Counted from the first letter of the stretch, positions 16,482 to 37,395 are shown. The stretch is 64,000 nt of DNA from Candidatus Bathyarchaeota archaeon (GCA_963702095.1 OY969706.1:2336001-2400000), one strand, 5' to 3'. The notes: generated by a model from the sequence alone, not told the origin. Numbers and translations: made by a program.

Positions 16482-17345
16482 TTATCTGAGGATCAGAAGC
16501 CGTAACAGGAAAACCAGCGGCACCCATTCACCGTCAACCATTAGGGCAGCTTGCAGTCGGGGGCGGGTAGATTTGAAAAAGTACCAAATTAGCAGGCTTT
16601 CGTAAATAACTCCGAATCCTAAAGTAGGCAGATATTCAGTAAAGATTGCAGTGAATAAGCAGCAGATGAACCAGACGACCAATAAACCGTTGAAGCCTAA
16701 GAGAAGACATTTGGTTTTCTTTTGCCCTAACGCTAAGGGTACAGTTAGTATACCTGATTTGCGGTCACCTTGAATATCGAGGGTGTCAAAAATTATGGTG
16801 TTGACTAGAATTTGGATGAATATATAGATGAAAAGCATGACTTCTTTGTAAAAAGCGATTGATTGTATGGCGGAGGGTAGGAATGCGCCGGTAATGCCCC
16901 AACTTAACGCGACAACAACGCTTTTGACGCCTAAAATTTCTTTTAAACGCGGTATTGATTTGGCTATTTTGATGCTGTATGTGAACCCGATCATTAAAAT
17001 TGCAACTAAGATAAGTAACGCCGTTATACCTGCGGCTATGCCTAAGGCGATGCTTACAATTAAACTAGTCACTGACGGAACAAGGTAATAGAGGGTTTTG
17101 TTAGGGGCAGCCTCTAAGCGATTGATGGCGTCTTCTTTGCTGTCGGTAGCCATGTTTAAGCTGTAAATGGAGAATGTTAAAAAAAAAGCCGCCAAAACCA
17201 AAATCGGCGAAACCTGAATTTCATAGAGGAAGCTTGCAAAAACAAACACTAATGCCCCGTTAAGGGCCAAATAAATTGAGTTGGAGAAAGCTAATTTTAG
17301 GACCTTTGCTAACCAGGCTTTCTCTTTAGGGGTTATTCCAATTAT
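16482..17345 (-). CDS. UbiA-family prenyltransferase; probable ATA start at 17345
   Basis: YSLNMATDSKEDAIN and NTIIFDTLDIQGDRKSGILTVP Asp-rich motifs; multi-TM. Confidence 0.85.
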   Translation of the reverse strand: MIGITPKEKAWLAKVLKLAFSNSIYLALNGALVFVFASFLYEIQVSPILVLAAFFLTFSIYSLNMATDSKEDAINRLEAAPNKTLYYLVPSVTSLIVSIALGIAAGITALLILVAILMIGFTYSIKIAKSIPRLKEILGVKSVVVALSWGITGAFLPSAIQSIAFYKEVMLFIYIFIQILVNTIIFDTLDIQGDRKSGILTVPLALGQKKTKCLLLGFNGLLVVWFICCLFTAIFTEYLPTLGFGVIYESLLIWYFFKSTRPRLQAALMVDGEWVPLVFLLRLLILR

Positions 17346-18127
17346 ACGCTCACCTTTTCCGCTCGTTTTAAGAAGCTTTGGAAAACCTCTTCGCCCCATT
17401 CCAAAGCCCGGGGATCAATCGAAACTAAATCCATAGTGTAATCGTATTGTCCATCTAGATGAAAAAGCCCCAGGGACAATATGCTTTCAGTGGTTGTTAA
17501 CGCGATTTTTATATCATCTAGCAAGTAAAGGTTTAATCGTCCTTCTACCATGAATTTATGGAAAAGCTCCCCTGTACCCGCGGAGATTGCGAATTCGAAG
17601 GTTTTGTTAAAGACTTCCTGGGTAATAATTAGGTCAACTGATCCTCCCACGTTTAAGACTTTTTGGAACAGGCTAACAAAGTCAGGGTGAAAAATCGGTG
17701 AAATACCAGTCACTTTATTGGTGTTTTCCACTATTTTCAAGAAATTATTGTGGACTTTGGATAATTCACTACGTTCGCTTTTCACCACGGATGAGGTTTG
17801 AAGCATACCGATTTTAAGCAGCGAACTGCTGGGTATCTGGTGAATGTCATGGGTTAACCAGAAAGTCTTGAATTTTTCCATGATTTCAGAGGCTCCCAAG
17901 CAGGCGTCACATAGATGTGCTTCAATACACCCGAGGGACGAGAGACTGTAAAACCCAGAATTTTTTGTGGTCAGGTCAAGTTTCTCGAATTCTTTTAGGG
18001 CATGGAGTATGGTTGTTGCGGTGCTGTCGATTTCGTTTTTTAAGTCTGAGAGCTTTTTATCGCCCCCAAGCAGGCTAATTAGAATTTTTTGTTTGAGTTC
18101 CGATCTGATTAATGCTCGGTACTCCAT
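17342..18127 (-). CDS. Archaeal wHTH transcriptional regulator (DUF1724/FilR1-middle-domain type)
   Basis: N-terminal wHTH; FWLTHD...IP, GISPIFHP, LGLF..DG.YD, A.EWGEE. Confidence 0.8.
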   Translation of the reverse strand: MEYRALIRSELKQKILISLLGGDKKLSDLKNEIDSTATTILHALKEFEKLDLTTKNSGFYSLSSLGCIEAHLCDACLGASEIMEKFKTFWLTHDIHQIPSSSLLKIGMLQTSSVVKSERSELSKVHNNFLKIVENTNKVTGISPIFHPDFVSLFQKVLNVGGSVDLIITQEVFNKTFEFAISAGTGELFHKFMVEGRLNLYLLDDIKIALTTTESILSLGLFHLDGQYDYTMDLVSIDPRALEWGEEVFQSFLKRAEKVSV

Positions 18128-18318
18128 AAGTTCCCCCTCAGTTTAGAAATTATTCATTCAATACCATATTTAAGCGTTAAGACAAATAGGCAACTATTGG
18201 ACGCAGGTGAGGTGAGCGGTTTGCCCTCATGTTGATTGCTTTGTTTAGGCAACTTTGCCTAGTTTTGACAAGATTTATATTCTTAATCAACAAATGATGT
18301 AAAGCTAGGAGGCTAAAA

Positions 18319-18546
18319 ATAATTAGCACTAACTTTCCTAAAAAAGGGACTACAATAAAATGCAGCTGCGGATCAGAAATCCCAGTTATACCTAACGCAG
18401 AAGCAGTTGGCAACTTCATAGATGCCCACATTGAAGAGCACCGGAGACAACAACCGGACCCCGCCCAAGGTGAAATCGTAGCCAAAGAAGTCCACGACAA
18501 ACTCTTCAAAGCACTCTTCAAAAAAATTGGCAGTGCCCCAACTTAA
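18319..18546 (+). CDS. 75-aa CxC...HxxxH putative zinc-binding protein with ATA/ATT start (not in ORF track)
   Basis: AGGAGG at 18307..18312, then ATA ATT AGC...; translates (M)ISTNFPKKGTTIKCSCGSEIPVIPNAEAVGNFIDAHIEEHRRQQ...KKIGSAPT*. Confidence 0.65.
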   Translation: MISTNFPKKGTTIKCSCGSEIPVIPNAEAVGNFIDAHIEEHRRQQPDPAQGEIVAKEVHDKLFKALFKKIGSAPT

Positions 18547-18633
18547 CTTTGACCAGCATGAAATGAATGCTCTTCAGATTACGCCTAAAAAAAGATAAGT
18601 TAAGCATAACAGCGCACAGCCACATTCACTCTT

Positions 18634-18822
18634 CTCCCATATTCACATCTCTTTGGTTCCACAGGGAAACATTTATCGCGTGTGAAGAAAAACGCATATC
18701 ACACCCAAACAGACACAGAAAACGGTTGCAACCCCAAAAAACAACCGCCCCATCAAGCAGTTTTGTGAAAATTAAAAGACTCCAAACACCCAATAAAGAG
18801 AGAAAAATAGGGGGACAAGCCC
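18634..18822 (-). repeat. Dispersed intergenic repeat family 2, copy 1
   Basis: Reverse complement aligns colinearly with 30534..30719 (GGGCTT, TCTTTAT, TGGGTGT, GCGGTTGTTTTTT, GTTTTTCT.CACACGCG). Confidence 0.75.
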
Positions 18823-18829
18823 TCGAATC

Positions 18830-18845
18830 CGAAACGCTTATATTT
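18830..18845 (+). promoter_or_regulatory. Putative BRE/TATA promoter of the leader-aro operon
   Basis: CGAAACG-CTTATATT about 35 nt upstream of the leader ATG. Confidence 0.5.
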
Positions 18846-18877
18846 TCTGTGACCTGAGTGATTGCAGGTTCGAAGCA

Positions 18878-18967
18878 ATGACATCAAAAGAAGCCAAAAG
18901 CAGCATCCGCAAATGGCAGTTTCACAGCTTCGACTACGGCTTTTATTATTACGGTTATTTTCCATAA
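18878..18967 (+). CDS. Trp/Phe/Tyr-rich leader peptide of the aromatic amino-acid operon (29 aa)
   Basis: Hand translation MTSKEAKSSIRKWQFHSFDYGFYYYGYFP*; W1 F4 Y5 in the last 17 codons; ends 59 nt before the aspartokinase ATG. Confidence 0.85.
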   Translation: MTSKEAKSSIRKWQFHSFDYGFYYYGYFP

Positions 18968-19005
18968 GCCCAGAACTGACAGATTTTTTGAGATTGGTTC
19001 TGGGC
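18968..19005 (+). promoter_or_regulatory. Putative attenuator hairpin enclosing a T6 tract
   Basis: GCCCAGAAC (18968-76) pairs with GTTCTGGGC (18997-19005); TTTTTT at 18984-89 lies inside. Confidence 0.7.
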
Positions 19006-19026
19006 AGCAAACGGGTGACCTAAAAC

Positions 19027-20271
19027 ATGGCTAAACAACTTCCTAGTCGTAAAATCGTTGTTAAATTCGGCGGATCCAGCCTAGCCGACCACGAACGCAT
19101 GCTAAAAGCAGTCAACTCAGTGGTCACTGAAGCGAAGCGGGGCACAAAAATCGCAGTCGTTGTCTCCGCAATGGGCAAAACCACCGACGTCCTCATGACC
19201 ACAGCAGAAAACACTTCAAACGGCAAACTCCAAAAACACGAACTCGACGACATCCTCTCCATGGGCGAACGCACCAGCGTACGCATCTTCGCCGCCGCAT
19301 TGCGCAACAACGGAGTGGACGCCTGCTACTTCGACCCCACCGACAACCAGTGGCCAATCGTCACCGACGAGGCATTCCAAAACGCCAACCCCAACCTCAA
19401 AGAATGCAACAAAAACATCCATGAATGCATCCTGCCAATCGTCGAAAAAGGAACCATACCCGTCATCGCAGGCTTCGTCGGCAAAACCAAAGACGGCAAA
19501 ATCACCACTTTAGGCAGAGGCGGAAGCGACACTACCGCTTTCCTCTTAGCCGAGGGCATAGGCGCCGACCAAGTCGTCCTCGTCACAGACGCAGACGGCA
19601 TAATGTCGAGTGACCCCAAAATCATCCAAGCACCCAGACGGCTCCAAACCATAGACGTCACCACCTTAGTGGGTTTGGCGGATTCAGGCGCGAAATTCAT
19701 CCATAGCAAAGCACTCAAGTACAAGCCCAAAGACATCGACGTCACAGTCATAAGCAACCAGCATGGCGACTTAAGCCGTGAAGGCACGATAATCACTGGC
19801 GGATTAGCAACAGAGCTTGACGCGGAAATCGCCCACCCCACAGCAGTAGCGGAGATAACTGTGATTGGCAACGGCTTGTCAGCCAACCCGCAGATTATCA
19901 ACCAGATGATTGAAAAAGTCAAAGAAAACACCGTCCTCTTAGGCATGTCGATGAACACTAACTCGATTATCCTCTACGTGCCCCAAACTGAGTCCATCGC
20001 CACATTGTTCAACCAAATCCACCAGATCACAGTCGGCAACAGCGAAACCATCGCGATGGCGGTCAAAAAAGACCTTGTCTTCATCAAAACCAGCGGCGTA
20101 GGCCTAGAAGAAACTCACGGCATCATCGGCAGAATCAGTGAGGATTTACGCCTAAACGGCATAAACATTTCAGGCATCTTAACCATCACGTCGAGTATTC
20201 TGCTTTTTGTAGATTGGAATGAGAAAGAGAAAGCGCTAAAGTTAATTAAAAACGCGCTTAAAACACATTAG
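19027..20271 (+). CDS. lysC: Aspartate kinase (first gene of the aro operon)
   Basis: VVKFGGSS, VVVSAMG.TTD, TTLGRGGSD, C-terminal ACT-like region. Confidence 0.92.
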   Translation: MAKQLPSRKIVVKFGGSSLADHERMLKAVNSVVTEAKRGTKIAVVVSAMGKTTDVLMTTAENTSNGKLQKHELDDILSMGERTSVRIFAAALRNNGVDACYFDPTDNQWPIVTDEAFQNANPNLKECNKNIHECILPIVEKGTIPVIAGFVGKTKDGKITTLGRGGSDTTAFLLAEGIGADQVVLVTDADGIMSSDPKIIQAPRRLQTIDVTTLVGLADSGAKFIHSKALKYKPKDIDVTVISNQHGDLSREGTIITGGLATELDAEIAHPTAVAEITVIGNGLSANPQIINQMIEKVKENTVLLGMSMNTNSIILYVPQTESIATLFNQIHQITVGNSETIAMAVKKDLVFIKTSGVGLEETHGIIGRISEDLRLNGINISGILTITSSILLFVDWNEKEKALKLIKNALKTH

Positions 20272-20282
20272 AGGCAAAAATA

Positions 20283-21073
20283 ATGAACGTCGGCAAAACC
20301 CGCAGACTTAAAAAAATCATGCAGAAAGACAACCGCACAGTCATCGTGCCCATGGACCACGGCGTCACCATCGGACCAGTCCAAGGCATCACAGACATGC
20401 AAAAAATAACCAACCAGCTAATCGAAGGCAAAGTAGACGCCATCTTGGTACACAAGGGCATAGCAAAACGCATTGACGTCGACGGCGCAGGCTTAATCGT
20501 TATGCTCTCAGGCGCCTCAAACCTCGGCCCAAACCCCAACGGCAAAGTCCAAGTTTGCAGCGTAGGAGAAGCCCTCCGCTTAGGCGCCGACGCCGTCAGT
20601 GTACACGTAAACATAGGCGCACAGGACGAGGACAAGATGCTGGCAAACCTGGGCAAAGTCAGCGAAGAATGCGAACACTACGGGTTGCCATTGCTGGCGA
20701 TGATGTATCCAAGGGGCCCAAAATCCAAAACGAACACGACCCTGAAGTGGTGGCACACGCTGCCCGAATCGGCGCTGAACTGGGAGCAGATATAATAAAA
20801 ACCAACTACACAGGCAATATTGAAACTTTTAGGGTAGTTACAGAAAGCTGCCCAGCCCCAGTGGTCATCGCAGGGGGACCAAAATGCAAGTCTCTCCAAG
20901 AAGTGCTCCAAACCACCCACGACGCCCTCCAAGGAGGAGCTGCGGGTCTCTCGATTGGACGCAATGTGTTCCAATGTGAAAACCCAACCCAGATTTCAAG
21001 GGCGCTCTCAGCCATCGTCCATGAAGGCACCTCAATTGAGAAGGCAATGAAAATTCTCGGTGACAAACGTTGA
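20283..21073 (+). CDS. aroA': 2-amino-3,7-dideoxy-D-threo-hept-6-ulosonate synthase; apparent 1-nt frameshift near 20718
   Basis: PMDHG...AMMYPRGP in one frame; [14 protein letters not shown] and GRNVFQ in the next. Confidence 0.88.
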
Positions 21074-22110
21074 AGGAACTCTGGCTAGAAATCAATCCAG
21101 CCGCTTCGGCTCAAGAAAAAGAAGCCCTACTTAGCCTTGCCCACGAAAACGCTGTCGTAGTCTTGGAGAATGGCAACGCCAGTGGCTCCTCTGGCAAACT
21201 GGACATAACTTTTCTAGCCGACCTCAACGAGAAAAAAATTGCCCAACTCAAAAAAGAAGGCAAAAAAAACGTTTACCAAGTTACCATAAAAGGCAAAGAC
21301 GACGAAAACCGAGCTGCCACAGCCGCGGAACTCGGCGTCGACTACGTAATCATCAACTGCCAAGATTGGCGCGTCATCCCACTCGAGAACCTCATCGCCA
21401 AGGGCAGAGGCAAAAGCAAACTCATCGCCGAAGTATCAACAGCCGACGACGCCAAAGTCGTGTTGGAAGCCCTCGAGTTGGGCACAGACGGCGTCTTGCT
21501 CCAAACCGCCAATTCGGCTGAACTCGAAAAAACCATCAAAATCATCAAGAACCAAATGCCCAAGATAGCACTGACAACCGCCAAAATTCTCTCTGTTAGA
21601 CCAATCGGTTCAGGCGCACGTGTCTGCGTGGACACGGTGGATTTGATGGTGCCCGGCGAAGGCATGCTAGTCGGCTGCCAATCAGCGGGCTTCTTCCTCG
21701 TCGAAGCAGAGGTCAGTGAAAACCCCTACGTGCAATCGCGTCCTTTCCGCGTAAACGCAGGGCCCGCATCGCACTACACCCTGACATCGCTGCAGGGTAC
21801 ACGGTACCTCTCGGAGTTAAAAGCCGGCGACGAAGTCCTAATTGCGACCCGAGAAGGCAAAGTCCGAATCACCAACGTGGGCAGAAGCAAAATCGAGTTC
21901 CGACCGCTAATGCTCATCGAAGCCCAAGCAGGCGAAACCAAAATCAAAACCATTCTCCAAAACGCCGAAACCATCCGGGTCGTCACTCCCAGCGCGTCTA
22001 AACCCGTAACTGAACTCAAAGCGGGCGATGAGGTGCTGGTGCATTTGGCGGCGAAGGGCGGCAGGCACTTTGGCATTAGTGTGCCTGAAGAAACGGTGAT
22101 TGAGAAGTGA
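21070..22110 (+). CDS. aroB': 3-dehydroquinate synthase II
   Basis: [38 protein letters not shown]. Confidence 0.93.
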
Positions 22111-22793
22111 GCCTGAGAATCTGCGTTTCTATTCGCCCCAAAAACATGGCAGACGCACGCAACCTCATCGCCAAAGCTGAAGATGCGGGGGCTGATTTTG
22201 TTGAGGTCCGCATGGATTTTTTAGAGGAAAACAGCAGCCTCAAAGATTTGGCGGCAAACACCAAGCTGCCGCTTATAGCCACCAACAAGCTTCAGAGCGA
22301 AAACGGCTACTTCACAGGCACCGAAGCACAGAGGCTGCAAACCCTGCTGGATGCAGCGAAAAGCGGCTTCCAATACGTCGACGTTGAATACACCAGCTCA
22401 AAACGCGTGGAAACCGTCGCTAAAATCAAGCAACTCGGAGCCAAAGCCGTCGTTTCCTACCACAAATACGATGGAATCCTAAACGCTTCCAGTCTCGAAA
22501 AAATCCTCGACCAGGAAATCGCAGATGGCGCCGACATTTGCAAAATCGTGTTAACCGCCAAGCAATTCGAAGACAACATCCCCGTGCTCAGTTTCGTCTC
22601 GTTCGCTTCCACCAAAGCGAAGCTGGTTTGTTTCTGCATGGGTGAAGCAGGCAAAACCTCTAGGTTGCTCTCTCCCGCTTTAGGCGCTTATTTCACTTTC
22701 GCCGCGTTGGACGAGTGCAGCCAGACGGCGGCGGGACAGATGAGTATAAAAGAAATGAAGACCGCTTACAATCTATTAGGGATTGGGCAATGA
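22107..22793 (+). CDS. aroD: Type I 3-dehydroquinate dehydratase
   Basis: ADFVEVRMD, VVSYH, ADICKI, CMGEAGKTSR, AAGQ. Confidence 0.9.
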   Translation: MSLRICVSIRPKNMADARNLIAKAEDAGADFVEVRMDFLEENSSLKDLAANTKLPLIATNKLQSENGYFTGTEAQRLQTLLDAAKSGFQYVDVEYTSSKRVETVAKIKQLGAKAVVSYHKYDGILNASSLEKILDQEIADGADICKIVLTAKQFEDNIPVLSFVSFASTKAKLVCFCMGEAGKTSRLLSPALGAYFTFAALDECSQTAAGQMSIKEMKTAYNLLGIGQ

Positions 22794-23659
22794 CTATTTC
22801 AGGCAAAACCAGGGTCTGCGGAGTCATCGGCGACCCCATCGAGCACTCGTTGAGTCCAATCATGCATAACGCCGCTTTTGAAGCGCTGGATCTTGACTAC
22901 GTGTTTTTGGCGTTCAAAGTTAAACCTGCCCACGTAGCAGACGCAGTGGATGGCATGCGGGCGCTAAACATCCGTGGCTTAAACGTCACCATGCCACACA
23001 AAAAAAAGGTGATGGCAAGCTTGGACCGCATAGACCTCTCAGCCCAAATAATCGACTCAGTAAACACCATACTAAACCAGGGAAACCTGCTGTTTGGCTT
23101 CAACACAGACGGTGTCGGCGCAGTCAAGGCACTCAAAGAGAACGGAGTTGAGTTGAAGGGCAGAAAAGTGTTGCTTCTAGGCGCAGGAGGCGCAGCCCGA
23201 GCAATCGCTTATGCAATGGCTAAGGAAGCTGACGAACTCGCAGTGCTCAACCGCACCGTCAAACAAGCCAAAGCCCTCGCCAAACTCATAGAAAAAACCG
23301 CCAACAAAAAAATCGCTTCAGGCTCACTCTCGCCAAGCGACGTGCAAAAGAACCTGCAGGACTCCGACGTCTTAATCAACGCCACCTCCATAGGCATGAA
23401 ACCCCACCCCGAAGAAACCCCTGTTCCGCCGAAACTGCTCCGCTCCAACCTCTCAGTCATGGACATAGTCTACAACCCGTTAGAGACGAAGCTGGCGAAA
23501 GACGCAAAGGCAGCAGGCGCCAAAGTCGTCAGCGGAGTTGAAATGCTCATCTACCAAGGTGCAGCGGCCTTTGATATTTGGACTGGCAAGTCGGCGCCCG
23601 TTGAGGTTATGAGGAAGGCGGTGCTTATGCACCTGCAGCAGAAGGCGAAGGAAGGTTGA
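22790..23659 (+). CDS. aroE: Shikimate dehydrogenase
   Basis: GDPIEHSLSP, NVTMPHK, NTDG, GAGGAARA; ATGA overlap. Confidence 0.95.
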   Translation: MTISGKTRVCGVIGDPIEHSLSPIMHNAAFEALDLDYVFLAFKVKPAHVADAVDGMRALNIRGLNVTMPHKKKVMASLDRIDLSAQIIDSVNTILNQGNLLFGFNTDGVGAVKALKENGVELKGRKVLLLGAGGAARAIAYAMAKEADELAVLNRTVKQAKALAKLIEKTANKKIASGSLSPSDVQKNLQDSDVLINATSIGMKPHPEETPVPPKLLRSNLSVMDIVYNPLETKLAKDAKAAGAKVVSGVEMLIYQGAAAFDIWTGKSAPVEVMRKAVLMHLQQKAKEG

Positions 23660-24525
23660 CTGGGAAAGCTTCGGCAGTAGCGCATGGCGCAGCAACAGTT
23701 GTTAATGCGATTGCACTGGGCAAGGGCGCAGCGTTTGGCGTGGATTTGTGGACTAAAGCAGAGGTCAAATTGACAAGTGAACCCGACTTTTTCGAGGCAG
23801 AAATAACCTCAGATGCAAGTGAGAGTACACTGCTTCTTGAGCAAAGTGTGGCTCGGGTTCTTCAGCGCTTCGGAGTCGAGAAAACTTATGGTGCCAAAGT
23901 CAAAACCACATCCAACATCCCCTCAGCCCGCGGCTTGAAAAGCAGCAGCGTCGCCGCAAACGCAACCGCACTCGCCACAGTAGCTGCCTTGGGCAAAGAA
24001 CTCGGCGACTTAGAAATCGTAAAACTCGGCGTCCAAGCAGCATTCGACGCCAAATGCACCATAACAGGCGCCTTCGACGACGCCTGCGCCTCATACTTCG
24101 GCGGAGCAGTCATAACCGACAACACAAAGAGACTAATCCTCAAGCAATTGCCATTGCCCAACGACTTGGTGGTGCTATTCCATGTGCCGCCCCAAAAAGC
24201 CTACACCATCAACTCAGACGTGACACGCCTACAAACGGTCAAACCCCTTGTGGAGACTGCGTTTGAGAAGGCAATGGAGGGCAAACTTTGGGATGCTTTA
24301 ACGCTTAACGGTTTGGTTTACTCTGCGGCTTCTAATTTGAACCCAGCAATCGCCATTGACGCGTTGGCAGCTGGTGCAGTGGCTGCTGGACTCTGCGGCA
24401 AGGGACCCGCCGTAACCGCCGTAACCACCACTGATAACGTTGATAGAGTCAAAGCTGCGTTGCAGAAGTATGAAGGCATAGTTCTGATGGCACATTTCAA
24501 CAGCGAGAAAGCCAAGGTGGTTTAG
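23656..24525 (+). CDS. aroK: Archaeal (GHMP-type) shikimate kinase
   Basis: GAATVVNAI, GLKSSS, TGAFDDA. Confidence 0.92.
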   Translation: MTGKASAVAHGAATVVNAIALGKGAAFGVDLWTKAEVKLTSEPDFFEAEITSDASESTLLLEQSVARVLQRFGVEKTYGAKVKTTSNIPSARGLKSSSVAANATALATVAALGKELGDLEIVKLGVQAAFDAKCTITGAFDDACASYFGGAVITDNTKRLILKQLPLPNDLVVLFHVPPQKAYTINSDVTRLQTVKPLVETAFEKAMEGKLWDALTLNGLVYSAASNLNPAIAIDALAAGAVAAGLCGKGPAVTAVTTTDNVDRVKAALQKYEGIVLMAHFNSEKAKVV

Positions 24526-24528
24526 TCT

Positions 24529-25824
24529 ATGGCGGATGTGATTGTGAGGAAAACGGAGCGTTTAGAGGGTGAAGTTGAGGCGCCGCCATCTAAGTCTTAT
24601 ACTCAACGCATGGTTATAGCCGCCGCGCTCTCGGAGGGCACTTCTCTTATCACAAACCCGCTTCACTCAGAAGACACAGAGGCGGCGCTACGGGCAGTCA
24701 CGGCTTTGGGTGCAGGCTTCCGCACTGGAGACGGCTGCTGGCAAATCAAAGGGGCCCAGCCACTCCACGCCGCGGAGGAGCCTATTGACTGCGGTGAGTC
24801 AGGCGCAACCCTGCGCTTCATGATACCCATCGCCGTATTGGCAGATGGACCATCAACACTGCTGTTTAGAGGCTCCCTTGAACGTCGCCCCGTAGACCCC
24901 CTGCTAAATAGCCTCAAAGACCTCGGCGCCGAAGCCCGTGTGGGGAAAGTGGGCGATTTAGACGCGGTTTTTGTGGAGGGCAGAGGCATAGTCGGCGGCG
25001 AAACCTTCATTGCAGGTGACGTTAGCTCCCAGTTCATCTCGGGTTTAATGTTTGCTTGCCCGTTAGCTGATTCCGAAACCGAAATCACGCTTACGTCGCC
25101 GTTGGAGTCGGCGGATTATGTTAAGATGACTGAGGCAGTGCTCTCGAGGCATGCGGTTGTCGTCGGAGTTGAAGAACGTTGCATCGCCATTCCAAGCGGC
25201 CAAACCTACAAGGCTGCAGACGAGGCTGTGCCAGGCGATTTTTCTTCAGTGACTTTTCTTTTGGCAGCAGCAGCCATCACGAACTCCAAGATTACAATCG
25301 CCAATCTCGATTATGAGTCGGTGCAGGGAGACAAAGCCATTTTAACAGTGCTCAAAGGTATGGGTGTTGATGGTAGGGTTTGTCGGGGCAGCGTCGAAAT
25401 CGAAGGCAAGGGTAAGCAGCTCAAACCTATCGATGTTGATGCCCGAAACATCCCCGATCTGGTCCCAGCCATAGCAGTGCTGGCATGCTACGCAGACGGA
25501 ACCTCAAACATCACGGGTGCTAAACGGCTTCGACTCAAAGAATCCGACCGCCTGCTCACCATCTACGAGGAACTAAGCAAAATGGGCGCCAAAATAACCA
25601 TAACAGAAGACAGCCTAATCATCAAAGGCACACCACTCCACGGTGCAACCGTCGACCCCCACAACGACCACCGCATAGCCATGGCAGCAGCCGTAGCCGC
25701 ATTAGGCGCAAAGGGCGAAACAACGATCACAGACTTCGAGTGCATCAGAAAGTCTTATCCGCAGTTCCTCACTCATCTTAAGCAACTAGGAGCTGAAGTT
25801 GTTGGCGGGAAACTCGATAGGTAA
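24529..25824 (+). CDS. aroA: EPSP synthase
   Basis: PPSKSYTQR, SSQFISGL, LRLKESDR, DHRIAM, KSYP. Confidence 0.95.
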   Translation: MADVIVRKTERLEGEVEAPPSKSYTQRMVIAAALSEGTSLITNPLHSEDTEAALRAVTALGAGFRTGDGCWQIKGAQPLHAAEEPIDCGESGATLRFMIPIAVLADGPSTLLFRGSLERRPVDPLLNSLKDLGAEARVGKVGDLDAVFVEGRGIVGGETFIAGDVSSQFISGLMFACPLADSETEITLTSPLESADYVKMTEAVLSRHAVVVGVEERCIAIPSGQTYKAADEAVPGDFSSVTFLLAAAAITNSKITIANLDYESVQGDKAILTVLKGMGVDGRVCRGSVEIEGKGKQLKPIDVDARNIPDLVPAIAVLACYADGTSNITGAKRLRLKESDRLLTIYEELSKMGAKITITEDSLIIKGTPLHGATVDPHNDHRIAMAAAVAALGAKGETTITDFECIRKSYPQFLTHLKQLGAEVVGGKLDR

Positions 25825-26905
25825 AGAATTCATGGTAACAACGTTTGGCGAAAGCCATGGCAAAGTCGTCGGCGTAGTCGTCGATGGGTGTCCAGCAGGT
25901 TTGCCGCTTAGCGAAGTAGATTTCCAAGAGGAACTAGACCGCAGGATACCCTCGGAGCCTAAAATCGTGTCAGCCAGAGTGGAGAAAGACACAGCCAAAA
26001 TCTTAAGCGGCGTCTTTGGCGGCTACACCACTGGTGCCCCCATCGCTGTGATGGTTGAGAACAAAGAAACCAAATCAAGCGACTACGACGCCATCAAAGA
26101 CTTGCCCCGCCCCAGCCACTCCGATTACCCCGCCCGCATCCGCTACGGCGGCTTTAACGATTACAGGGGAGGCGGACGCTTCAGTGGGCGTGTCACAGTC
26201 GCGCTAATCATGGCAGGCACCATAGCCAAAAAACTACTGAGCAGATATGACATTGACGTTTTAGCTTACACCAAAACCATCGGGAAAATCCGAAGCGGCA
26301 AAGCGTTTAGTGCCGCGGAAATCCGCAGAAACCGTTTTGCCGCTGCCACAAGGTGCCCCGACTTGGAGTGCGCCGAAAAGATGGAGCAAGCCATCGTAGC
26401 GGCTAAAGAGTCAGGCGACAGCCTCGGCGGAGTCATCGAGTGCATAGCATTCAACATGCCTGCGGGCGTGGGTGAGCCGCTCTTTGACTCATTAGACGCG
26501 GATTTGGCGAAGGCACTATTCAGTGTTCCCGCTGTGAAGGGCGTGGAATTCGGCGCTGGTTTTAAGTCTGCGGAGATGCGGGGCTCAGAAAACAACGATG
26601 CATTCCTTGTCAAAGGTGGAAAGGTGGTGACGGCGACTGAGAATGCAGGCGGCATCTTAGGCGGCTTATCCAGCGGCATGCCCATCGTTATCCGCGTTGC
26701 CGTTAAGCCTACGCCCTCCATTGCAAAGGAGCAGCAAACCGTGAACATGTCGTCGATGGAGAACGCTTCCATAAGCGTTAAGGGCCGCCATGACCCCTGT
26801 GTTGTCCCTAAAGCCGTACCCGCCATAGAAGCGGCGGTCGCAGTAACCTTAGCGGATCACCTGATTCGTTCAGGCGATATTCCAAAAAAGTTAAAGGAGC
26901 AATAA
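25799..26905 (+). CDS. aroC: Chorismate synthase
   Basis: FGESHG, PRPSHSD, GGILGGLS, KPTPSI, GRHDPC. Confidence 0.95.
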   Translation: MLAGNSIGKEFMVTTFGESHGKVVGVVVDGCPAGLPLSEVDFQEELDRRIPSEPKIVSARVEKDTAKILSGVFGGYTTGAPIAVMVENKETKSSDYDAIKDLPRPSHSDYPARIRYGGFNDYRGGGRFSGRVTVALIMAGTIAKKLLSRYDIDVLAYTKTIGKIRSGKAFSAAEIRRNRFAAATRCPDLECAEKMEQAIVAAKESGDSLGGVIECIAFNMPAGVGEPLFDSLDADLAKALFSVPAVKGVEFGAGFKSAEMRGSENNDAFLVKGGKVVTATENAGGILGGLSSGMPIVIRVAVKPTPSIAKEQQTVNMSSMENASISVKGRHDPCVVPKAVPAIEAAVAVTLADHLIRSGDIPKKLKEQ

Positions 26906-26907
26906 AA

Positions 26908-27168
26908 ATGGATGAAATAGATAGTTTGCGTGAAAAAATCAATGCTGTTGACGAGCAAATCCTAAGAGACATAGTTGTGAGAGTAAAAATTTGCCGTGCC
27001 ATCGGCGAGTTAAAGAAGCAACATGGCAAACCCGTTCATGACATTTCCAGAGAGACAGAAGTTTACAATCGCATCAAGGAACGGGCGTTAGTGTTGAAGC
27101 TTGACCCAATTCAAACTGAACGCATCTTCCACGAAATAGTTAATATGTGCAGCAGCGTTCAACAGTAG
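26908..27168 (+). CDS. Chorismate mutase (AroQ type)
   Basis: LREKINAVD...R...IGELK...D..RE. Confidence 0.88.
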   Translation: MDEIDSLREKINAVDEQILRDIVVRVKICRAIGELKKQHGKPVHDISRETEVYNRIKERALVLKLDPIQTERIFHEIVNMCSSVQQ

Positions 27169-27196
27169 AGAACTCTCAACGGAGAGGTATTCATAG

Positions 27197-28279
27197 ATGC
27201 TCTATGAAATAAACGAGAAAGCCCTAAAACTCGAAAGTGAAGGCAAAAAAATCATTCGACTCAACCTAGGCGACCCCGACATGGCTACACCCCCAGAAAT
27301 CGTGGAGGCAGCCTACGCTTCGATGAAAGAAGGCAAAACCAAGTACTCCTCATCCTACGGCGAACTATCACTACGCAAAGCCATCGCTGAGGTACACGGC
27401 GTCAAACCCGAAAACGTTGTTATCACCCCCGGTTCGAAATGGGCGATATTCTCCACTATGTTTCTCACACTCAAAAACGGCGGCAACGTCATCATCCCCA
27501 CGCCGTACTGGACAGCTTACGACTTAATAGCAAAAAGCATTGGCGCAAAAACCAAATTGCTCCGCACAGAGATGGAGGACGGCTGGAAAATCCACCTTGA
27601 CAAACTCGAAAACCTCATCGACAGCGAAACAAAAATTATACTGCTAAACAACCCTAACAACCCCACCAGCAAAGCCATCGACGACAAAACCCTCGACGGC
27701 ATAGTTGAATTAGCCAACAAAAAAGGCGTCACCATCCTTAGCGACGAAGTCTACGGTGCCATCGCATTTAAGAAAACCAAGAGCATCCTCGACTACGGCG
27801 CAGACAGCCGCCACATCGTCAGCAACGGCTTCAGCAAAACCTTCACGATGACTGGCTGGCGCATCGGCTACTTAGTCGCCAACAAAACCCTAGTTGACAA
27901 CGTCACAAAACTTAACCAGATCACCTTCAACAACGTACCCGTCTTCATCCAAGACGCCGCACTCAAAGGCTTAGAACTCCACAAGCAAATCGCCAGCAAC
28001 ATCAAAGCCAAATACAAAGCCCGCGCCGACCTCGCAAGCAAAAAACTCTCCTCTGCAGGCTTCGAATTCACTAAGCCCGACGCACCCTTCTACGTGTTCC
28101 CAAAGAAAAAAGGGCTCGACGGTACAAAATTCACCCTCAACCTGCTCGACAGCGGCGTAGCAGTAGCCCCAGGCTCAAGCTTCGGCGACTACCCCGAACA
28201 CTTCCGCATCAGCCTAACCGCTCCAGACGACCAAATAGCAGTTGCCCTGGACAAAATCAGCGAGGCAGCAAATCAATGA
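27197..28279 (+). CDS. PLP-dependent class I/II (aromatic/aspartate) aminotransferase
   Basis: NNPNNPT, SDEVY, FSKTFTMTGWRIG. Confidence 0.92.
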   Translation: MLYEINEKALKLESEGKKIIRLNLGDPDMATPPEIVEAAYASMKEGKTKYSSSYGELSLRKAIAEVHGVKPENVVITPGSKWAIFSTMFLTLKNGGNVIIPTPYWTAYDLIAKSIGAKTKLLRTEMEDGWKIHLDKLENLIDSETKIILLNNPNNPTSKAIDDKTLDGIVELANKKGVTILSDEVYGAIAFKKTKSILDYGADSRHIVSNGFSKTFTMTGWRIGYLVANKTLVDNVTKLNQITFNNVPVFIQDAALKGLELHKQIASNIKAKYKARADLASKKLSSAGFEFTKPDAPFYVFPKKKGLDGTKFTLNLLDSGVAVAPGSSFGDYPEHFRISLTAPDDQIAVALDKISEAANQ

Positions 28280-29148
28280 GGACAGCCGTTCTCGGCGCAG
28301 GAAAAATGGGCATTTGGTTCACAGAGTACTGCAAAGAGAAAGGCGACACAGTAGTCCTTGCTGACCGCAACCCAGAGAAACTGGCAAAGTTAGGCGACGA
28401 GTTGGGCGTTTTAACCGCTGATTTCTCAGCCGCAGTCAAAGGCGCTGACCGCGTTTTACTCTGCATATCCATCTCCAGTTTTGAGGAAACAGTCAAAAAA
28501 ATCGCCTCCTCAATCCACAAGGGGCAGCCTGTCATGGATATCTGCTCCATCAAAGAGTACCCAGTTGAAGTCATGCACACGTATCTCAAAGGCGCCCTCA
28601 CACTGGGCACGCACCCAGTGTTTGGGCCAGGCAGCAACGGCGTAGCCCACAAAGCCTACGTTTTAACCCCCACCAACGCCGAGGAAATAGCCTACGCTAA
28701 AGAATACCAGCGGTGGCTTGAAAGTGAAGGCGCTCACGTCTTTGTCATGACGCCTAAGAAGCATGATGAGTTAATGTCGATCGTGTTGGGGTTCCCACAT
28801 TTCCTCGGCTTAGCCGCCTGCGAAACCCTGCTGGAGCAACCAGCCTTCGCCGAATCCAAAAAGTTGGCGGGAACAACCTACCGCATGCTATTCACCCTCG
28901 TCGAGGCAGTCGCCGCAGAGACGCCTGACCTCTACGCTAATTTGCAGACCAAGCTGCCGGGTATGGAGAAAATTGAGGAGCGGTTCATAGCCAATGCCGA
29001 GGAGTGGCTTGAGTTGATGAAGAAAAAAGATTCCAAAGCCATCATGAACCGCATGGACCGCCTCCGCGCGATATTGGAGAAAACTGACCGTGAATACGGG
29101 AAGAGTTATGAGGATATGTATAGAATGCTTCAGTCAACTGAGGAGTAA
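28276..29148 (+). CDS. tyrA: Prephenate/arogenate dehydrogenase
   Basis: GAGKMG, DICSIK, THPVFGP, HDELMS...PH. Confidence 0.92.
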   Translation: MRTAVLGAGKMGIWFTEYCKEKGDTVVLADRNPEKLAKLGDELGVLTADFSAAVKGADRVLLCISISSFEETVKKIASSIHKGQPVMDICSIKEYPVEVMHTYLKGALTLGTHPVFGPGSNGVAHKAYVLTPTNAEEIAYAKEYQRWLESEGAHVFVMTPKKHDELMSIVLGFPHFLGLAACETLLEQPAFAESKKLAGTTYRMLFTLVEAVAAETPDLYANLQTKLPGMEKIEERFIANAEEWLELMKKKDSKAIMNRMDRLRAILEKTDREYGKSYEDMYRMLQSTEE

Positions 29149-29153
29149 GCAAG

Positions 29154-29786
29154 ATGACTAAGACTTTACTGGTGAACTGTTACCTTGACAGCAACAAAAT
29201 CAACCCCCTCTGCGACGCACTCAACAAGTTCACAGTCTGCAAAACAGTGCCCTACACAAAAATTCAGAAAGACTATCGGTTTGGGGAAGATATCGCCGCA
29301 GTCGTCGTAAGCGGCTCCGAATCCCGCATAGTAAAACCTGAGGACCAAATCAAATTCAAAGGCGTCATAGATTTTATTCCAACATGCGAGGTGCCTCTGT
29401 TCGCCGTTTGTTTTGGGCATCAACTATTATGCACTGCTTTTGGCGCCAAAACCGCTTCGCTTCCCAAGCCAGTCATGGACCGGTTTGAACAGGTTAACAT
29501 TATCCAGACAGGCGACATTCTTAGCCGATTTAGAAAAGGCCAAGCGGTTCCCCTGGCAGAATACCACAACGACTACGTCTTAAAAGACAGCCTCTACGAC
29601 GCAGGCTTCAACTTGATCGCTGACTCCCCAAGCTGCGAAGTGGAAGCGGTGAAGCACAAGAGCAAGTTGTTCTTCGGCGTCCAATTCCACCCCGAACGCA
29701 TCACAATCGGAGACGAAACCCATCCTGAAGGTCATCAAATCATTGATAACTTTTTCTGCAACAATGTGAAACGACTCGGCATCTAG
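29154..29786 (+). CDS. Class I glutamine amidotransferase
   Basis: AVCFGHQ and QFHPE catalytic triad. Confidence 0.88.
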   Translation: MTKTLLVNCYLDSNKINPLCDALNKFTVCKTVPYTKIQKDYRFGEDIAAVVVSGSESRIVKPEDQIKFKGVIDFIPTCEVPLFAVCFGHQLLCTAFGAKTASLPKPVMDRFEQVNIIQTGDILSRFRKGQAVPLAEYHNDYVLKDSLYDAGFNLIADSPSCEVEAVKHKSKLFFGVQFHPERITIGDETHPEGHQIIDNFFCNNVKRLGI

Positions 29787-31645: not shown

Positions 31646-32458
31646 TTAGATAACTCGCGGGTAGCTTCCCAGAATCTTTATGAAATTCGCGTACTTCTCC
31701 AAGGCCGCCAACGCCTCAGTGCAACGTTTCTCTGTCCGATGCCCCTCGAAATCAACGTAAAAGTTGTATTGCCAGGCGGTGGTTTTGGTGGGTCTGGATT
31801 CGATGCGTGTTAGGTTGATGTTGCGGGATGCGAATTCGCCGATTGCGTGATAGAGCGTGCCCGGCGCATGTTTGAGCGAGAAGATGATGCTGGTTTTGTC
31901 GTCGCCAGTTGGTGCCGCATCTTCTAATCCCAGTACGAGGAAGCGGGTGTAGTTGGTGGGGTTGTCGGCGATGTCTCTTGCGAGGATTTTCATGCCGTAG
32001 AGGTCGGCGGCTTTTTCAGATGCGATGGCTGCGGCGTCTGTTCGGCTTTGTTCTTTGACTATTTTGACTGCGCCGGCGGTGTCGTAGGCGGGGATGACGT
32101 CCCAGTTGTGTTTTTCGAGGTATTTGCGGCATTGCGCCAGCGCTTGGGGGTGCGAATAGACGGTTTTGATGTTGTCGATTTTGGTGTCGGGGTTGCCGAT
32201 TAAGACATGGGCGAGTTTGACTGCGACTTCCCCGCAGACTTTGAGGTCGTAAGACAGAAAAAGGTCGTAGTTTTGGTTGATGCTGCCCTCAATGCTGTTC
32301 TCAATGGGAACCACACCATGGGGCACAGCCTCGGTTTTGACGGATTCGAAAACATCGCGGAAGTCTTTGCAGGGCACCGGCTCAACTTTGCCGCCGAAAA
32401 ACTTGTAGACCGCCATCTCACTGTAGGCGCCGGTTTCACCCTGATAAGTTACCTTCAT
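31646..32458 (-). CDS. pheA: Prephenate dehydratase
   Basis: GAYSE, PIENSIEG, SHPQALAQC, NYTRF, IESRP. Confidence 0.95.
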   Translation of the reverse strand: MKVTYQGETGAYSEMAVYKFFGGKVEPVPCKDFRDVFESVKTEAVPHGVVPIENSIEGSINQNYDLFLSYDLKVCGEVAVKLAHVLIGNPDTKIDNIKTVYSHPQALAQCRKYLEKHNWDVIPAYDTAGAVKIVKEQSRTDAAAIASEKAADLYGMKILARDIADNPTNYTRFLVLGLEDAAPTGDDKTSIIFSLKHAPGTLYHAIGEFASRNINLTRIESRPTKTTAWQYNFYVDFEGHRTEKRCTEALAALEKYANFIKILGSYPRVI

Positions 32459-33981
32459 TGTTTCTTGCCTTGACTACGATTCTTTAGTAAGCACTTGTTT
32501 ATACCGTTTATCATTGCTTCCACAGATGCCATGACGATGTCTTCTCTGGCAGCACGGGCGCTGACTATGTTGCCTTTTTCGTCTTCGACTTTTATGACTA
32601 CTTCAGCGACTGCGTTGGAGCCGCCGGTGATGGCTTCCAATCTGTATTCGCTTAGGCGGATTTTTTCGAGGTTGCTGGTTAATTTCTGGATGGCTTTGAG
32701 TGCTGCATCGACGGGGCCGACACCGGTTTCTGCGGCAACGTATTCTTTGCCGTCCAGCGTCAGGCGTACCGAAGCGGTTGGGATGACTTTTATGCCTGTG
32801 ACGACTGCCATGTCGCAGAGGTCAACGATTTTTTCTTCGCCAATCACCTCACCCATGACTGCGGATGTTAAGGCTATTAGGTCGGCGTCGGTTACCATTT
32901 TACCTTTGTCGCCCAATTCTTTGACGCGTTTGACGATTTCGGATAGTTGCTCTTCGTTGGGGTGAATGCCGATATCTTTCAGTTCTGCTTGGATGCCTCT
33001 TGTGCCTGCAAGTTTGCCCGCGACGAGTTTGCGGGTTCTGCCCACGAGTTCAGGGCTGATGGGCTCAAAGGTCAACGGTTGCTCTGTGACGCCTCTGGTG
33101 TGAATACCGCTTTCGTGAGCAAAGGCATTTTCGCCGACAATTGCCTTGTTAACCTGCACGTTTATTCCTGTTAAAGAGGCTACCATGCGGCTGGTGCTGT
33201 AGAGCAAGCGTGTGTTAATGTTGGTTTTGTACTTGTAGACCACATGCAGGGTGGTGGCGACTTCTTCTAGGGCTGCGTTGCCTGCGCGTTCGCCAAGACC
33301 GTTTACGGCAGTGTGGACTTGGGCTGCGCCTGCTTCAACGGCGGCTAAGCTGTTGGCGACTGCTAAGCCGAAGTCGTTGTGGCAGTGGGCGCTAAGTGGA
33401 ACCTTGATGTAGCTTTTAAGTTCCTTAAAAAACTCAAAAGTTGTTCTTGGTATCATGCAGCCGACGGTGTCTGGCGTGTTTAAGCTGTCCATGCCTGCGT
33501 CCTGTGCTGCTAGGCAAATTTGTTTTAGGAAGGGCGGTTCGGTACGAGTGGCATCCATTGGGGAGAATTCACATTTTACGCCATGCTTCTTTACGTATTG
33601 AATTGAGTCTACAGCGGACGCTAAAACCTGTTCAGGGGTCATGTTAACGGCGTATTTCATCTGTACAGGCGAAGTGGGGATGAACACGTGGATTAAGTCA
33701 ACGTCGCAGTCTAGTGCGGCGTCGATGTCTTTTTTTGTACAGCGGGATAGGGCACAGATTTCTGAGGTTAAGCCCAGTTTGGCGATGTCTCTGACGACTC
33801 TTTTTTCGCCTTCAGAACTGCTTGGAAAACCAGCTTCGATAACGTCTACGCCGAGTTTGCTTAGTTGGCGTGCAATCTCGATTTTGTCGTCGGTTGTTAG
33901 GGAAACGCCGGGGGTTTGTTCCCCGTCCCTCAACGTTGTATCTAAAATGCGGATGGTTCGGGTTTCAGTTTGTTGTGTCAT
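32455..33981 (-). CDS. leuA: 2-isopropylmalate synthase (LeuA/CimA family)
   Basis: [28 protein letters not shown], regulatory domain GVGPVDA. Confidence 0.9.
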
Positions 33982-33986
33982 ATGGG

Positions 33987-35024
33987 TCAGCTTTTCGCAG
34001 CGGTTAAGGCTGCGGCGATGGCTTCTGCCATGCCCACGGTGGTGGTTTTGCCGCCGCAGTCAGGAACACATTGCCCATTCTTCAACGCGTAGATGGTGCC
34101 GTTTTCTATGGCTGCCGCTGCCTTAATGCATTTGGGATCATTGTATTTTTCACCCAGCCAATCCAGCATCATCTTTGCAGACAGGATCATGCTGATGGGA
34201 TTGGCGGTGTGTTTGCCTGCACGGTTGGGTGCGGAGCCATGGATGGGTTCGAATAAACCAAAGTTGTCGCCGATGTTTGCGCCGGGAGCCATGCCTAAGC
34301 CTCCGATGAGTTGCGCTGCTTCGTCAGAAAGGATGTCGCCGAACATGTTGCAGGTGCAGAAGACATCGAAGAATTCGGGTTCTTTGATTAGGCGCATGGA
34401 GGCGGCGTCAACGTAGAGTTCGTTGAACGCGATGTCTGGATAGCCTTTGGCGACTTCGCGGCATACGTCGCGGAATAAGCCGTCGGTTACACGCATGACG
34501 TTGGCTTTGTGGATGGCGGTAACGCGTTTTTTGCCATTACGTAGGCGGGCGACCTCGAATGCTTTTTTGGCGATGCGCGTGCTGTTTTGGCGTGTGATAA
34601 CTCGTAGGCACAGGGCTGTGTCGTTGCCTATCATGAATTCTAAGCCTTTGTAGACGTCCTCGGTGTTTTCGCGGACAAAAAACATGTCGATGTTTGGCCG
34701 TGCAGCCTGTACGCCCGGGTAAGTTTTCAGGGGGCGCAAGTTGGCATATAAGTCGAACATGCAGCGTAGTTTAACGATGACATCAGCTGCGGATTCGCCG
34801 ACTGGACCCTTCATGCAGGCGTGGCTGTTCTTGATTTTCTCCACAGTGTCCGCTGGTAGGGCGGCGCCGAGGGTTTCAAGGGCGATGTCGCCTGCTGGGG
34901 CTTCGATGATTTTTAGTTTCAATTCAAACTTTTTTTGGACTGCATCTAGGACTTTTAGGGTAGCTTCAGATAATTCGGGTCCGATGCCGTCGCCTGGAAT
35001 TAGGGATATTTTGTATTCAGTCAT
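33987..35024 (-). CDS. leuB: 3-isopropylmalate dehydrogenase
   Basis: KGPVGESAADVIVKLR, EPIHGSAP; leu operon context. Confidence 0.92.
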   Translation of the reverse strand: MTEYKISLIPGDGIGPELSEATLKVLDAVQKKFELKLKIIEAPAGDIALETLGAALPADTVEKIKNSHACMKGPVGESAADVIVKLRCMFDLYANLRPLKTYPGVQAARPNIDMFFVRENTEDVYKGLEFMIGNDTALCLRVITRQNSTRIAKKAFEVARLRNGKKRVTAIHKANVMRVTDGLFRDVCREVAKGYPDIAFNELYVDAASMRLIKEPEFFDVFCTCNMFGDILSDEAAQLIGGLGMAPGANIGDNFGLFEPIHGSAPNRAGKHTANPISMILSAKMMLDWLGEKYNDPKCIKAAAAIENGTIYALKNGQCVPDCGGKTTTVGMAEAIAAALTAAKS

Positions 35025-35524
35025 TTCTTGTTCATTCTCCTTCGTAAGTTCTCAATTAATCCGCCGTCCGCCAAAATCTCTAAGATGAAAGGCGGCAGTT
35101 TCTCCACTTGGAACTTTTTGCCATTGGAAACATTTTCAATCTTGCCGGCTACAAAGTCCACGGCTAATTCGTCGCCAGTCTTAACCGAAGTTGATATGCC
35201 TTTGCATTCAATTACGGGCAAACCGATGTTGATTGCGTTGCGGAAGAATATTCGGGCAAACGACTCAGCAATGACGCATTTGACGCCGCTGTACTTTAGC
35301 GCTAATGGTGCCTGTTCGCGGCTGGAGCCGCAGCCGAAGTTTTTGCCTCCGACCAAGATTACGCCTGGTTTGGCTTTTTTTACGAAGTCTGTGTCTAAGC
35401 CTTCCAAAGCGTGTTGGGCTAAGTCGTGGGGGTCCACTAAGATTAGGTATTTACCTGGTAAGATGACGTCGGTGTCAATGTTGTTTCCGAAGACTACTGC
35501 TTTGGCTTTGATTTTGCTCTCCAT
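35021..35524 (-). CDS. leuD: 3-isopropylmalate dehydratase small subunit
   Basis: NIDTDVILP, NFGCGSSREQA, SFARIFFRN; ATG at 35524 overlaps the leuC stop. Confidence 0.95.
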   Translation of the reverse strand: MESKIKAKAVVFGNNIDTDVILPGKYLILVDPHDLAQHALEGLDTDFVKKAKPGVILVGGKNFGCGSSREQAPLALKYSGVKCVIAESFARIFFRNAINIGLPVIECKGISTSVKTGDELAVDFVAGKIENVSNGKKFQVEKLPPFILEILADGGLIENLRRRMNKK

Positions 35525-36786: not shown

Positions 36787-36883
36787 TGCATTTTCTTTTC
36801 CTTTTAATTAAACTGCTTAACCATAGGATAATGGCAAATTCTAAAGAAGGGACGTTTAAGTATTTGGGCTTTGGACATGCAGT

Positions 36884-37395
36884 TTAATCGTCGATTCTTA
36901 TGGATTTAGCGCCCCGCGCCAATGCAGTGATGCCAGTGCGTGCAAGCTCGATAATGCCAAACGTTTTCATGAGGTTGAGGAAAGCGTCGATTTTGTCGGG
37001 AGCTCCGGTGATTTCTACGGTTATGTTGTCAGGGAGACATCGATGATTCTGCCTCGGAAGACTTCGACGAAGTTAATGATGTCACTGCGTTCCTTTGAAT
37101 CTTTAACTGCGACTTTAATCAGCGAGAGCTCTCTCATAACGTAGTTGCCGAATTCGAGTTCACCGACTTTTAAGACGTCGATTTGTTTTTCCACTTGCTT
37201 GACAACTTGGTCCAAGGTTTTCTCATCGCCGTTAACTGTTATGGTCATGCGTGCAATGTCGGATTTTTCTGTTGGGCCGACGGTGATGGATTCGATGTTG
37301 AAGTTTCGGCGTCTGAACAAGTTGGCAATCATGTGCAAGACACCTGGCTTGTTTTCGACTAGCACAGATATAACTTTGAGTTTTTCCGCTTGCAT
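36884..37395 (-). CDS. ilvN: Acetolactate synthase small subunit; apparent 1-nt frameshift near 37033
   Basis: [18 protein letters not shown]; the shifted frame continues [17 protein letters not shown]...IELARTG...DD*. Confidence 0.9.

Follow-up and report, generated by a model that had tools for sequence, protein, structure and literature searches.

The closest described systems are mostly bacterial. In the pyrBI and pyrE leaders of E. coli, a ribosome close behind RNA polymerase blocks a terminator hairpin, and UTP is sensed via the speed of the polymerase. In translational attenuation of the ermC/cat type, the hairpin contains the Shine-Dalgarno (SD) sequence of the regulated gene, and a drug causes the ribosome to stall. 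Arrest peptides of the TnaC type sense a free amino acid, and their conserved residues act in the exit tunnel. The pheM-pheST, trpL, hisL, thrL and leuL leaders are enterobacterial leader-peptide attenuators, of the same class as pheL-pheA. An excerpt of PMC3082878 describes pheL-pheA as an enterobacterial leader-peptide transcription attenuator.

For Archaea, excerpts of PMC6737238 state that little is known about the control of aromatic synthesis. They describe TrpY (Methanothermobacter) and Tar (TK0271, Thermococcus kodakarensis) as DNA-binding proteins at the promoters of aromatic operons, report Tar/TrpY homologues from almost no Crenarchaeota, and suggest a third regulator or mechanism. 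A leader of the kind presented here could be that mechanism. The initial annotation of the locus had stated that no leader-peptide attenuator is known to be mechanistically established in Archaea, and our search of the full-text literature, with subscription journals outside its coverage, found none either. Two reviews, one covering archaeal coupling (PMC8116511) and the other termination signals (PMC13675443), use neither the term "attenuation" nor "leader peptide". Excerpts of Ribo-seq papers on Haloferax and Methanosarcina mention leader peptides solely by analogy with bacteria or within a cited reference.

We analysed a 64,000 nt stretch of a Candidatus Bathyarchaeota archaeon genome (GCA_963702095.1, OY969706.1:2336001-2400000), hereafter the window. 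Judging from comparative sequence data, an ORF at 18878-18967 (+ strand) is probably a translated, Phe/Tyr-sensing regulatory leader of an operon for aspartate kinase, the shikimate pathway and Phe/Tyr synthesis. In brief, the ORF has 29 codons and a TAA stop, with the ATG at 18878, the stop at 18965-18967 and the product MTSKEAKSSIRKWQFHSFDYGFYYYGYFP as translated from the window. Start, stop and translation are as given in the initial annotation, and so is the skew in composition: none of the 12 N-terminal residues is aromatic, compared with 10 of the 17 C-terminal ones (1 W, 4 F, 5 Y). Across relatives, the N-terminal half varies and the C-terminal half is rich in Phe and Tyr. The aromatic codon tract extends from W13 to F28 (18914-18961, +), and 10 of its 16 codons are aromatic. 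F28 is the final aromatic codon, with the stop one codon further.

The window's leader has the most aromatic tail of all 17,736 short ORFs (ATG-started, 20-45 codons) in the whole genome. It alone has at least 10 aromatics in the last 17 residues; the runners-up reach 9/17 in three ORFs and 8/17 in 14.

A promoter, CCGAAACGCTTATATTTT, is predicted at 18829-18846 (+) and consists of a BRE-like CCGAAA and a TATA box (CGCTTATATTTT, 18838-18846). It is almost unchanged in the alignment of the 29 same-genus upstream regions that extend that far, which supports the TATA-like box proposed earlier. A 13-mer and a 14-mer spanning the promoter occur once each in the genome. The usual archaeal spacing from TATA box to start site predicts that the transcript starts at approximately 18867-18868. 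The leader ORF thus sits between the promoter and the first structural gene, whose ATG is at 19027 on the same strand, and is presumably co-transcribed with it. Just upstream of the promoter lies an approximately 110-nt intergenic stretch (18700-18808), of which 14 other partial copies (49-112 nt, 70-90% identical) are found in the genome on both strands. Contigs from three soil small-RNA metatranscriptome runs (one sample; 0.09 share of words each), compared with 18600-20300, cover only 20206-20300 and 32 nt of this repeat (18720-18751), and most of them continue into unlike sequence.

Downstream of the leader we found the 12-gene lysC-aro operon of the initial annotation, its content now assigned by Pfam and spacing (19027-29786, +). 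The genes encode, in order, aspartate kinase (414 residues, ATG at 19027), a DeoC-type aldolase (aroA'), DHQ synthase II (aroB'), DHQase I (aroD), shikimate dehydrogenase (aroE), a GHMP-type kinase (shikimate kinase), EPSP synthase (aroA), chorismate synthase (aroC), chorismate mutase, a class I/II aminotransferase, prephenate dehydrogenase and a GATase. All are encoded head to tail on the + strand, and adjacent genes either overlap by a few bases or are a few bases apart. The SD of the kinase, GGGTGA (19013-19018, +), lies 8 nt after the hairpin P2 described below and 9 nt before the ATG, and its GGGTG block is conserved in same-genus alignments.

In the assembly, a frameshift at an A-run close to 20715 breaks the aroA' gene (20283-21073, +), which three relatives have in intact form (270-275 aa). 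Two more biosynthetic genes are split by frameshifts: ilvB (37395-39100, -) into 82 aa and 498 aa, and trpE, with its N-terminus out of frame (C1, approximately 1944830-1946247). The assembly is a single contig with 90% completeness, and the three frameshifts are probably homopolymer errors rather than pseudogenes. Two genes upstream of the leader, a FilR1-like regulator (Pfam FilR1_middle, E = 1.2e-25) is encoded on the opposite strand (17342-18127, -). Relative L011 has another, same-strand ORF upstream of its leader, and hence no conserved linkage of the FilR1-like gene was seen.

The initial annotation had proposed to look in related genomes for a conserved short ORF enriched in F/Y/W, and a conserved F/Y-rich one is what we found. 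In each of the 30 same-genus genomes, the orthologous kinase is preceded by an ATG-started ORF of 24-29 codons, and a comparable ORF is present in 53 of 53 further public contigs with sufficient upstream sequence, including that of Ca. Bathyarchaeum tardum; other families have it too. In the same-genus ORFs the N-terminal half drifts freely, and the C-terminal half holds a block of the type SF[DE]Y-x-FYY-x-x-[YF]F. The promoter, a 10-mer, the block AGCTTCGA, the hairpin arms and GGGTG are near-invariant in the base alignment, and the first 15 codons are not. Gaps within the ORF are multiples of three, so that the indels keep the frame; frame-breaking indels had been named beforehand as a sign against a coding leader.

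The class-wide sample comprised 301 genomes, of which 95 have a kinase orthologue at E <= 1e-90; 60 further upstream regions were taken, plus six from the order. Pooling gave 148 loci and 131 unique upstream regions. As a leader we counted any short ORF whose end lies 25-130 nt before the kinase and whose last 14 codons include six or more aromatics. Such leaders were found in 106 of the 131 unique regions, with 66 of the 106 coming from one genus and kin not being independent. They represent 12 families: f1 (10 genera), f5, f7, f11, f14, f16, f19, f27, f30, f32, f34 and f37. As a control, the reverse complements of the same 131 regions gave 2 matches at 6 aromatics and none at 7. Families f12 and f15 have weaker candidates (4 of 14 codons aromatic).

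Not included in these counts are L084, L086 and L088, which are at contig ends and have no upstream sequence, L101, which is cut inside the leader, and L145, with 17 nt of upstream sequence only. The same applies to L104 and L105, kinase paralogues (35-40% identical) located directly behind another gene and lacking a leader, and to L095 and L096, which are bacterial (25-26% identity).

We did not find a Phe/Tyr-rich leader in f26 (9 loci) or f35 (13 loci). Before the kinase, the loci of these two families (L121-L136, L157-L162) have a different conserved short ORF, which contains ..FGDGVY.. or ..FGGHIYG.. as a motif together with a stretch of conserved bases. This ORF has two to four aromatic codons only and a variable tail.

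Between families the leader peptides cannot be aligned, as exemplified by the tails FFDFFYYYFYFE, NPYYYYYYYCFF, RFFGYFYFYYFK and PFFGSFGYFGYRG. The start codon is ATG in 104 of 106 leaders, and all three stop codons are used (TAA 68, TAG 28, TGA 10). The aromatic codons of the 106 tails are TTT (206), TTC (187), TAT (302), TAC (145) and TGG (25). The synonymous divergence looked for at the outset is thus present, with both Phe and both Tyr codons in use. Mixed codons and diverged peptides, with aromatic richness kept, are the pattern expected under selection on codon meaning. Together with the ATG, the variable stops and the frame-keeping indels, this places the constraint on coding meaning and not on bases. 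Downstream of the kinase come, in 10 of 10 other families, either aroA' and aroB', optionally preceded by asd (aspartate-semialdehyde dehydrogenase) and followed by aroD, or aroB' and aroD. The kinase thus heads aro genes in all ten, indicating the same target pathway throughout.

The last 14 codons of the 106 leaders contain 865 aromatic codons: 393 for Phe, 447 for Tyr and 25 for Trp. Trp occurs in this part of 24 of the 106 leaders, and anywhere in 21 of the 66 same-genus leaders. Because Trp is this rare, W13 of the window's leader is not a conserved feature. The initial annotation had one leader sense all three aromatic aminoacyl-tRNAs. The enrichment agrees with this for Phe and Tyr; sensing of Trp is not supported, given 25 of 865 codons and no such leader at the trp operon. 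In that operon of the same genome the promoter lies directly before trpE, with no Trp-rich ORF. That earlier reading was nevertheless largely right in kind, as it described a cognate leader and candidate ribosome-mediated control.

The pheA gene (prephenate dehydratase with an ACT domain) is located outside the aro operon, as the last gene of an ilvB-ilvN-leuC-leuD-leuB-leuA operon (31646-39100, -). A TATA box lies approximately 30 nt before ilvB; the gene names, except those of leuA and pheA, were read from translations. This operon lacks a leader ORF enriched in Leu, Ile, Val or Phe, and no cognate leader was found for ilvC. A crude genome scan for single-amino-acid leaders gave 101 noisy matches and nothing convincing. 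Scanning the genome for the architecture (TATA box, short ORF, abutting hairpin and downstream gene) gave 27 matches, among which the aro leader alone has a tail enriched in the product of the downstream genes.

The stop codon of the window's leader is followed directly by a hairpin, P2 (18968-19005, +), which begins at the next base. Its arms are 18968-18979 and 18994-19005, and its apical part contains a T6 run (18984-18989). The predicted energy is -18.7 kcal/mol (z = -5.0), which none of 200 dinucleotide shuffles equals. P2 is almost invariant in the genus (99.3% of cells paired). Across 64 same-genus sequences nine base pairs are kept; the changes are G-U compatible, most of them turning A-U pairs of the sense strand into G-U, and 2 are double changes. 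Covariation within the genus, with double changes in 2 pairs, is too low to prove the helices, and the support comes from comparison across families. A counterpart of different sequence is found at the same place in every other family, and we regard this constancy of place with varying sequence as the true evidence of an RNA helix. No other site in the genome was found to combine copies of the hairpin arms and of the 5' motif.

The spacing of these elements is tightly kept. The last aromatic codon is separated from the stop by 0 codons in 18 leaders, 1 in 80 and 2 in 8, which accounts for all 106. Measured from the end of the stop codon, all 106 leaders have the first paired base of the hairpin at -3 to +7 nt, 90 of them at -3 to 0. 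For 105 of 106 leaders the hairpin has -10 kcal/mol or better, the mean being -17.2 and the mean z against shuffles -3.7. The distance from leader stop to kinase start is 48-74 nt, with the kinase SD within about 12 nt of the hairpin.

P2 is followed by AGCAAACGGG in the window, and the mean for the genus is 0.8 U in 8 nt. An intrinsic terminator, i.e. a GC hairpin directly followed by a U-tract, is thus absent before the first gene in the window's genus. A U-rich stretch does follow the hairpin and run into the SD in f14 (hairpin, then UUUUU), f11, f37, f7, f32, f27 and three genera of f1. Judged by sequence, hairpin and U-rich tract in those families have the shape of a bacterial intrinsic terminator. 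According to an excerpt of a 2026 review (PMC13675443), archaeal polymerase can obey a terminator of the bacterial type.

In the window's genus, a run of at least five T is located inside the hairpin in 49 of 66 sequences. We rejected T6 in the loop as a universal terminator, as it is missing in 17 of the 66 leaders, including a termite-gut clade. Runs of T5 or longer are found at 367 of 996 gene 3' ends in the whole genome, versus 242 of 1102 5' sides, and only 5% of the T-runs at least 20 nt from a stop are preceded by a hairpin of -10 kcal/mol or better. For its ordinary terminators this genome appears to use the archaeal type without a hairpin, which sets the leader hairpin apart as a special device rather than a stock terminator.

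Our best explanation is a ribosome that acts as a gauge of Phe and Tyr. What we infer, from translation and stalling to the sign and level of the hairpin effect, runs as follows. Transcription would begin approximately 10 nt ahead of the ATG of the leader, with immediate loading of a ribosome. When Phe-tRNA or Tyr-tRNA is scarce, it would slow down through the aromatic tract. Because a single codon separates the tract from the stop, which in turn abuts the hairpin, a ribosome waiting at the last aromatic codons should, from the known size of the ribosome footprint, cover the first bases of the 5' arm and keep the hairpin open. With both tRNAs in ample supply, the ribosome would get to the stop and depart, and the hairpin would fold and reduce expression of the operon. 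Where a U-rich tract trails the hairpin, the reduction would most likely come from hairpin-assisted termination of transcription; the window's genus has the T-run inside the hairpin instead.

We put forward this core, a late stall that occludes a hairpin with negative effect, as a tentative model. The chance is slightly better, and not far short of even, that aromatic synthesis in Bathyarchaeia is under an attenuator unlike the bacterial build, in which a Phe/Tyr-starved ribosome on the last sense codons itself opposes the hairpin, without the need for an alternative RNA fold. The conserved aromatic codons right up to the stop are sensible only if a stall beside the hairpin matters. It should be noted that what the hairpin does is the weak point. 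Occlusion also requires that release at the stop is faster than the stall at a hungry codon, since a ribosome at the stop codon would cover the 5' arm as well, and that RNA polymerase does not outrun the ribosome. A stall early in the tract, which would leave the hairpin free, counts against it.

An unlikely explanation, and still the best placed of the alternatives, is a classical attenuator with alternative structures. It involves a second helix, P1, formed by element A (GGTTCGAAGC, 18867-18876, +), at the predicted 5' end of the transcript and 1 nt before the leader ATG, and element A' (AGCTTCGAC, 18926-18934, +), which covers codons Ser17-Phe18-Asp19 at the start of the aromatic tract. RNAalifold pairs the two, the alignment columns of element A are at least 90% conserved, and 99.3% of cells in P1 are paired with G-U compatible changes. 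From our reading of the printed sequences, P1 is lengthened by matching changes in other f1 genera. A ribosome stalled on A' (codons 17-19) would free element A to pair with the 5' arm of the hairpin as an antiterminator; without the stall, P1 would form and the hairpin would terminate. The conservation of P1, with its 3' strand at the start of the tract, suits this proposal, as does the pairing of leader and 5' arm in several families, where 0-2 of 23 foreign leaders do better than the own one: -14.7 kcal/mol in f7 (0 of 23), -19.9 and -18.0 in f5, -21.5 in f12 and -17.3 in f11 g47. In the window, however, the duplex of element A and 5' arm reaches -9.5 and foreign leaders average -9.0, 7 of 23 of them doing better, and the pairing is no better than foreign in f14, f30, f32, f27, f34 and f11 g42 either. 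Taken by itself, the P1 segment yields z = -1.3, and 22 of 200 shuffles fold equally well; the genus also lacks the U-tract behind the hairpin. We rejected an antiterminator formed by 5' leader and 5' arm as a general rule, the pairing being non-specific in the window and in f14, f30, f32, f27 and f34. Of the pheL/trpL-type design in the initial annotation, the leader with end-product codons and the hairpin stand; alternative terminator and antiterminator hairpins are not generally found.

Somewhat less probable is translational attenuation, where the last codons of the leader, or the flank of the hairpin, would pair with the kinase SD and mask it until a stall at the leader end freed it. The fold of the window does pair GGUUAUUU (codons 26-28) with GGGUGACC, the predicted unpaired probability of its SD rises from 0.11 (naked RNA or early stall) to 0.55 (late stall), and the SD is always at most about 12 nt behind the hairpin. 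Averaged over the 66 same-genus leaders, however, SD accessibility hardly moves (0.38 naked, 0.36 early, 0.41 late, 0.40 at the stop), in other families it shifts in either direction, and the SD lies outside the hairpin. With changes this inconsistent over leaders, an SD-masking switch was rejected as a general rule. Of the three models examined, only direct occlusion explains the terminal aromatic codons in 106 of 106 leaders, and its sign is right if the folded hairpin is negative.

It is very improbable that the ORF is incidental to an untranslated RNA or protein-binding element, e.g. a site for an amino-acid-activated RNA-binding protein, made of the conserved U-rich tract and the helices. 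Within the genus, tract and both helices are indeed conserved at the base level, including some third positions. Against this stand the ATG-led open frame in 104 of 106 leaders, the variable stop always at the foot of the hairpin, the indels that keep the frame, and the turnover of bases between families while aromatic codon content stays. A cmscan of 17000-21000 on both strands also gave no match to an Rfam family at E up to 1. Least probable of all is a small functional peptide with a non-regulatory position before the operon, which would account for conservation as an ORF but not for a composition that is kept while the sequence is not, an N-terminal half that varies freely, or a constant tie to an abutting hairpin and a kinase-aro operon.

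The Phe/Tyr leader looks like a ribosome-based amino-acid gauge of the kind so far described only in bacteria. If this is true, it would be the first amino-acid-sensing attenuation in Archaea, and direct evidence that archaea exploit the coupling of transcription and translation for gene control. It thus bears on whether archaeal regulation uses this coupling as bacterial attenuation does. The leader of 12 Bathyarchaeia families is a concrete element that can be tested and that makes a clear prediction for every one of its components (the ATG, the aromatic codons, the position of the stop and the hairpin), and annotators gain a small gene missed by gene callers.

Compared with the systems described at the outset, the leader shares with TrpY and Tar the pathway under control in Archaea; unlike it, those are DNA-binding proteins that act at promoters. 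From arrest peptides of the TnaC type it differs in that leaders of different families share a composition and no conserved peptide positions. As in ermC/cat, a stalled leader ribosome is proposed to open a downstream hairpin, but the SD is 8 nt behind that hairpin and no conserved switch in its accessibility is predicted (0.38 to 0.41 over 66 leaders). With the pheL/pheM class it shares a short ORF between promoter and biosynthetic operon, end-product codons packed C-terminally with a hairpin next, and a peptide sequence that is free while codon content alone is kept. Unlike that class, it is archaeal, is proposed to sense Phe and Tyr jointly, and has a stop that abuts the hairpin, and the window's genus has no Rfam match, no U-tract after the hairpin and no demonstrable antiterminator. 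As in pyrBI/pyrE, the leader ends at or in the hairpin, and the ribosome itself would be the antiterminator with no alternative fold. Unlike there, the signal would be charged tRNA, and the sign needs a long stall at the last sense codons and not mere proximity. By analogy, we suggest that the geometry of the leader is closer to ribosome occlusion of the pyrBI/pyrE type, and that its function resembles that of the pheL/pheM class.
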